Source of the DNA: an uncultured archaeon
Lineage (GTDB): Archaea > Asgardarchaeota > Heimdallarchaeia > Heimdallarchaeales > Kariarchaeaceae
Direction: 5' to 3'
NCBI GenBank assembly: GCA_964645535.1
Contig: CAZYCQ010000009.1
Location: 1-64,000, forward strand
Length of the DNA stretch: 64,000 nucleotides
Shown: positions 14,661 to 14,777 of the stretch, in pieces
Numbering within the stretch: the first letter of the stretch is position 1
Layout of the letters: the number at the start of each line of letters is the position of its first letter
Position numbers and translations under genes: made by a program
The notes under the pieces: generated by a model
What the model saw: the letters and a program-made list of their open reading frames with translations, nothing else
Told to the model about the DNA's origin: nothing
The model's database searches: none

Positions 14661-14777
14661 CTATTTCTCCTTGATATCTGCCTCTTCCATTGCGAAGAAG
14701 TGGTAGGCAAGAACAAGTCCAAGTGCAATGATTGATGCAACTATGCTCAGGTATCTAACTACTGTAAAATCGATCAC
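14661..14777 (-). CDS. 38-aa single-pass membrane microprotein, OST4-like (not in ORF track)
   Basis: GTG...TAG frame read by hand: MIDFTVVRYLSIVASIIALGLVLAYHFFAMEEADIKEK; fills the gap between two same-strand genes. Confidence 0.65.
   Translation of the reverse strand: MIDFTVVRYLSIVASIIALGLVLAYHFFAMEEADIKEK

Follow-up and report, generated by a model that had tools for sequence, protein, structure and literature searches.

In eukaryotes, OST4 is the non-catalytic mini-subunit of the multi-subunit oligosaccharyltransferase (OST). In the yeast structure Ost4 is seen 'nestled between TMH1 and TMH13', and the Stt3-Ost4-Ost3 subcomplex is broken by charged residues introduced at positions 18-24 of yeast Ost4 (PMC7226087). 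A topology with the N terminus outside and the C terminus inside (N-out/C-in) has been validated for the yeast protein (PMC3687696). Eme et al. (2023, Nature 618:992, PMC10307638) reported Ost4 and Ost5 homologues from the majority of Asgard classes, and the preprint of their article says likewise; the supplementary text of the article singles out OST5 and WBP1 alone as new and contains neither a description nor a list of Ost4 sequences. An earlier, sequence-only reading of the DNA analyzed here was not aware of OST4 among the OST subunits known in Asgard archaea, whereas Eme et al. had already reported it (PMC10307638). A multi-subunit Asgard OST with STT3, OST1 and OST3/6 was described in a study of the Sec61/OST/TRAP translocon of MK-D1, the main text of which does not mention OST4 (0 occurrences; PMC11417166).

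The window analyzed here, meaning the whole stretch of 64,000 nucleotides, contains a small ORF on the minus strand at 14661..14777. Translation confirmed the GTG-started, 38-amino-acid frame that the sequence-only reading had proposed, and the frame ends in a TAG stop codon. The product is an OST4-like single-pass membrane protein with a short polar N terminus, a transmembrane (TM) helix at approximately residues 9-28 that includes L23-x-Y25-H26, and an acidic C-terminal tail. AlphaFold2 modeled it as a single helix spanning residues 4-37 with a pLDDT of 92. The protein begins with M-I-D-F-T-V-V, has a serine at residue 15 (S15) and, in register from Met1, carries the motif residues L21, L23 (V in OST4), Y25 and H26. 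Residues 1-29 of the human OST4 sequence with which the ORF had originally been compared agree with those of PDB 2LAT, and the seven identities that were listed (M1, I2, L21, V22, Y25, H26 and A29) are correct, giving 7/29. In size and shape the ORF also falls within the definition of OST4, namely, a protein of 36-40 aa with a lone TM helix ending near residue 28 and a variable tail (PMC3687696). The exact 38-aa protein was absent from a collection of 15 billion proteins, in which a near-identical, unnamed protein of 44 aa, starting at an upstream ATG, was present.

Comparison of the ORF with its closest relative revealed 5, 5 and 21 differences at the first, second and third codon positions, respectively, corresponding to a pS of 0.79 and a pN of 0.11. 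The pooled values were 0.76 (pS) and 0.27 (pN) within the genus and 0.65 and 0.17 in a genus of a sister family. A search with the single protein as the query retrieved small ORFs of the same length and with the same motif in relatives, and the conservation of the ORF that had been anticipated was borne out across two families, in which the length, start, stop and L-x-Y-H motif are retained. A BRE/TATA-like promoter (GATAAGA TTTTTTA) lies upstream on the minus strand at 14800..14813, and the initial T of the TATA-like box precedes the GTG by 29 nt. Inspection of 24 upstream regions showed a TATA-like box at -29 to -38 in most of them. Because this box is kept whatever gene lies upstream, we infer that the small gene is its own transcription unit, with a leaderless or near-leaderless mRNA. 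Scanning the locus for sigma-70 promoters and terminators gave chance-level results, this type of scan being ill-suited to archaea. The small ORF is a real gene under purifying selection and not a chance ORF.

The gene is flanked upstream by a TetR-family regulator (14826..15566, minus strand), which is a neighbor within the genus only and lies outside the proposed system, and downstream by a MobA/CTP-transferase-like nucleotidyltransferase (13813..14649, minus strand), located 11 nt past the stop codon of the ORF. The nucleotidyltransferase adjoins the small gene in just one other inspected genome. A functional link to the TetR, nucleotidyltransferase and MBL genes was considered and rejected, since the neighbors vary even inside the genus and the ORF is preceded by a TATA box of its own. 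The caveat raised earlier, that the neighbors are not OST genes, is accounted for by the promoter of the small gene and by the change of neighbors between lineages; unrelated neighbors would follow from its being an independent transcription unit. In several Asgard lineages, the small gene is found beside a hypothetical gene of ~130 aa, a metallophosphoesterase gene and an Lhr helicase gene (or a GTPase gene). The ~130-aa protein (L070:915-1331, minus strand, and homologues) is conserved, contains a GERFWKA motif, has no Pfam match and is, in many Asgard lineages, the product of the gene immediately upstream of the small one. In Njordarchaeales, the small gene is located near a Ham1-family gene or ribosomal protein genes. 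Synteny supports the orthology of distant family members. In none of the genomes compared was the small gene adjacent to stt3. The closest spacing, ~5 kb, was observed in two complete genomes of a sister family (G015:C1:1944818-1951097 and G020:C1:2186968-2193244), and the two genes share a contig, 24-87 kb apart, in G022, G012 and G037; the linkage between them is weak, as these genomes are not independent. Elsewhere in the window, an ORF of 890 aa for RNA polymerase A'' (18526-21198, plus strand) contains a long insertion that appears intein-like, with a C-terminal ILTHN-T motif.

The distribution of the family was determined with iterated family alignments (A1, A2 and A3) at a threshold of E<=0.02. 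Members were present in 45 of the 46 other genomes of the order, nearly always as one copy. Across the phylum, 235 of 400 genomes contained the family at this threshold, rarely with more than one copy, and the majority of Asgard lineages are represented, Lokiarchaeia among them. Part of the weak matches, chiefly in family f20, is due to chance, and the surveyed genomes are kin rather than independent observations. Column conservation across the family was 88% for L23, 79% for Y25 and 66% for H26, and the tail is acidic in most members, contrary to the positive-inside rule. The expectation that the YH motif would be kept in relatives held for the Tyr, which most members retain, but not for the His, which follows the Tyr in most Heimdall- and Njord-type members and in family f12, with other residues taking its place in Thor-type members, Loki members and several more. 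Profile A8 matched 84 of the 161 genomes of the class that we take to be Lokiarchaeia. The Loki loci that were inspected contain N-terminally extended ORFs of 42-69 aa, mostly convergent with a gene for an OBG/YchF-type GTPase (assigned by motif only). Many members from the loci L189-L210, likewise taken to be lokiarchaeial, have a hydrophobic N-terminal extension of ~15 residues that ends in LF(I/L)FQ and precedes the OST4-like part; this extension could be a cleaved signal peptide that enforces an N-out topology. Two complete Loki genomes, G142 (4,324,194 bp) and G137 (about 6.0 Mb), which we take to be those of Promethearchaeum syntrophicum MK-D1 and Ca. Lokiarchaeum ossiferum, respectively, each hold a candidate. 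The first is of 42 aa (G142:C1:151003-151131, minus strand; L213:2742-2870) and the second of 43 aa (G137:C1:3189264-3189395, minus strand; L214:2723-2854), and both are convergent with the OBG/YchF-type GTPase gene. Direct profile searches missed both candidates, and only synteny recovered them.

Similarity to the Pfam Ost4 profile had been named beforehand as a check on the proposed kinship, and the ORF itself gave no match to this profile (gathering score, 25 bits); only its relatives match, weakly. Indeed, a Pfam scan of the ORF returned no family at E<=10. Searching 41 genomes with PF10215 produced chance-level matches only, none of them at this locus and equally frequent in control genomes, and phmmer and hmmsearch comparisons of the ORF and of alignments A1, A2 and A3 with the PDB retrieved no OST4. 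These failed direct searches are weak counterevidence, because in the same PDB search yeast and human OST4 match each other with an E of only 0.08. Among 38 members, 2 matched Pfam Ost4 at E>=0.044, amid many unrelated TM families; a member from the same genus scored 14.1 bits (E 0.044). When 1.84 billion representatives were searched with A2, 27 matches were obtained, all of them Asgard-family-like, with no recognizable eukaryotic OST4. For P0024, from a Njord-type locus, the best Pfam match was Ost4 (E 1.1e-4; 22.4 bits against a cut-off of 25; model positions 1-31) and the best PDB match was yeast Ost4 (E 0.007), E-values that need multiplying accordingly, since P0024 was chosen by eye among 27 matches.

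We compared the ORF, without gaps, with yeast and animal OST4 and found that it ranked first among the 1,119 candidate TM ORFs of 30-50 aa in the genome (score, 27.7; mean, -10.7; standard deviation, 9.6) and that it alone among them has YH at positions 25-26. The OST4 score of the ORF was reached in any register by 1 of 2,369 real TM helices, and 98.4% of these helices score below the family median. In the ESM Atlas, the top three clusters for the ORF were Ost4 (0.88; 210/256 features), which is a lead only, being under the 0.9 line; a query with a Thor-type member gave no Ost4 match. With hhalign, the Asgard family aligned with eukaryotic OST4 in register and ungapped, with a probability of 63-70% and a pairwise E of 4e-5 to 7e-5, the eukaryotic profile being shallow (4 distinct sequences). 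None of 150 within-block column shuffles reached this score, but 35 of 150 TM shuffles in which YH was held fixed did so, and the sequence signal is therefore mostly YH. The hhalign signal thus comes down to Met1, the TM helix and YH at 25-26 in register. The N-terminal pattern of eukaryotic OST4 (M-I-[ST]-D-x-Q-L, with D4, Q6 and L7) is not retained in the ORF or the family, and G15 is found in one third of the members. Njord-type members, P0024 for example, have part of the pattern and match yeast Ost4 over residues 1-26, including an N-terminal MIS-x-E-x-LN that lies outside the membrane core. Foldseek, run with the single-helix model, found no match, a lone helix being uninformative.

Docking at the OST4 site of STT3 had also been named beforehand as a check, and the predicted complex places the peptide there. 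ESMFold2, given residues 20-745 of STT3 and the peptide, returned a score of 0.76, compared with 0.00 for the best of three controls, which were unrelated natural proteins not described as TM peptides. Of 80 solved complexes, 58 reach the mark applied to the complex score, as do 2 of 110 mismatched pairs. The runs had at least 87% of their contacts in common, with a partner pLDDT of at least 73. In the model, the peptide contacts STT3 at residues 33-59, 160-172, 440-452 and 472-495, stretches that our own TM mapping, from hydropathy and an alignment with human STT3A, would place in TM1, TM3, the end of TM12 and TM13. The peptide is predicted to make contact mainly through residues 14-31, most confidently through residues 18, 19, 22 and 23. 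Its residue 11 lies against STT3 residue 491, at the outer end of TM13, and its residue 23 against residue 476, at the cytoplasmic start of this helix; the modeled peptide is therefore oriented N-out/C-in. The predicted site and orientation match the yeast Ost4 site, the sensitive positions 18-24 and the yeast topology. Because STT3 and OST4 are a textbook pair, recall of solved structures by the predictor is possible, and the score speaks for likeness and not for binding of this copy. In the STT3 of L100, the residues R161, D441, H452 and Y476 (A5 numbering) are strongly conserved polar residues at the cytoplasmic end of the groove, near Y25-H26 of the modeled peptide; speculatively, they might serve as a polar anchor.

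The genome encodes a single STT3 (contig C60), which matches human STT3A with an E of 9e-94 and is far closer to eukaryotic STT3 than to the solved archaeal AglB domains; STT3 is single-copy in most of the 41 genomes. Ribophorin I is encoded on contig C40. An OST3/6-type protein of 140 aa (contig C59 of the genome, G000; L161:1495-1917, minus strand) has a match to Pfam OST3_OST6 that is confined to the TM part (E 7e-8) and a DC2/OSTC-like size and layout. A two-TM-type ORF of 79 aa with a GTG start (contig C45; L163:1477-1716, plus strand) has Ost5 as its best Pfam match (E 0.002, below the cut-off) and is a probable TMEM258/Ost5 homologue. An OST48-like protein, also below the Pfam cut-off, is encoded as well, and a search with the Pfam model of DAD1 found no such protein in the genome, which is 89% complete.

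In our assessment, the ORF probably encodes an Asgard homologue of eukaryotic OST4, a kinship that is supported, not proven. The earlier proposal of such a homologue stands in its conservation, in the first rank of the ORF among the small TM ORFs of its genome, in bridging homologues with Ost4 as their best match and in the predicted docking to STT3, but not in a Pfam Ost4 match for the ORF itself. The helix would insert N-out/C-in, wedged chiefly through residues 14-31 into the groove formed by TM1, TM3, the end of TM12 and TM13 of STT3. By analogy with yeast and human OST4, the peptide may stabilize STT3 and help to recruit the DC2/OST3-type subunit (subcomplex II), and this recruitment would raise the efficiency of N-glycosylation at the translocon. 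The peptide itself would have no catalytic role.

That chance alone opened this frame in the intergenic space between the TetR and nucleotidyltransferase genes is hardly credible. The ORF is short, begins with GTG and has no record as a called gene with this start; however, pN is far below pS, with changes concentrated at third codon positions, the length and motif are kept in hundreds of genomes, and homologues are annotated as genes in public assemblies. The gene product might instead be a membrane microprotein with a housekeeping role in a different complex, for example one associated with the Lhr helicase/metallophosphoesterase/130-aa cluster, and its likeness to OST4 would then be due to chance. 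Such a role would be in keeping with the position of the gene, in several lineages, between the 130-aa hypothetical gene and the Lhr helicase, phosphoesterase or GTPase gene, with its never adjoining stt3 in the genomes compared and with the weak matches of short TM peptides to many families. We consider it unlikely, as the order studied here, Njord-type genomes and Lokiarchaeia have all lost this neighborhood yet keep the gene as a single copy, and the gene has its own promoter. Moreover, the identified neighbors are soluble nucleic-acid enzymes that would have no evident need for a TM peptide, and the complex model passes with STT3 but scores 0.00 with an unrelated protein of 787 aa.

Another possibility is that the peptide binds STT3 at the OST4 site and is of independent origin, the YH and the length having been imposed by the same groove. 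The small size of the sequence signal and its concentration in YH, the many Asgard lineages that are without the His and the failure of Pfam Ost4 to detect most members would all agree with convergence of this kind. Nevertheless, we judge it distinctly unlikely, given that Njord-type members match yeast Ost4 along residues 1-26, the MIS-x-E-x-LN segment outside the membrane core included, and that the register is identical from Met1. The family is, in addition, pan-Asgard and accompanied by a eukaryote-type STT3 (E 9e-94 to human STT3A), and shared descent is therefore the simpler account.

Under the preferred reading, that of an Asgard OST4 homologue, we lean slightly toward a wider proposal in which all Asgard archaea inherited a core of STT3, OST4 and DC2/OST3 (eukaryotic subcomplex II) from their common ancestor. 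N-extended, His-less forms of OST4, 42-57 aa in length and missed by Ost4 searches, would then occur even in Lokiarchaeia, among them two complete genomes taken to be those of the cultured strains, with the Y-H form concentrated in Heimdall- and Njord-type lineages. If this is true, an archaeal multi-subunit OST would be directly testable in culture, and the coordinates given above for G142 and G137 supply testable candidates in complete Loki genomes. The analysis lends support to the published and thinly documented claim that the smallest OST subunit is older than eukaryotes; if so, the multi-subunit glycosylation machine of the endoplasmic reticulum (ER) was largely assembled in Asgard archaea. 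It also provides an example of a eukaryotic signature protein that escapes size cut-offs and Pfam searches.

Compared with eukaryotic OST4 (yeast Ost4p and human OST4; PF10215; PDB 1RKL, 2LAT, 6EZN, 6C26 and 6S7O), which has 36-38 aa and one TM helix ending at about residue 28, the protein described here is alike in size and layout, has M1 and Y25-H26 in the same register, is variable in its tail past residue 28 and is encoded by a stand-alone gene. The placement predicted for it, N-out/C-in between TM1 and TM13 of STT3 with an interface centered on residues 18-23, would also be that of OST4. In contrast, the ORF is only 24% identical to OST4 over residues 1-29, has no Pfam match, is without D4, Q6, L7 and G15 and has an acidic tail, whereas the tail of OST4 is basic (KKXX-type in vertebrates; PMC3687696); its membrane would be that of the archaeal cell rather than the ER. 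The Ost4 homologues of Eme et al. make the same claim with a matching broad distribution and are likely to belong to the same family as the ORF; the text of that report differs in presenting no docking evidence (PMC10307638). The MK-D1 translocon study lists no OST4 (PMC11417166); the present analysis found a syntenic 42-aa family member in G142. An Asgard OST4-like subunit is not a new kind of system, and Asgard OST4 is itself not new; what is new here is a concrete family, a predicted site on STT3 and candidates in two complete Loki genomes.
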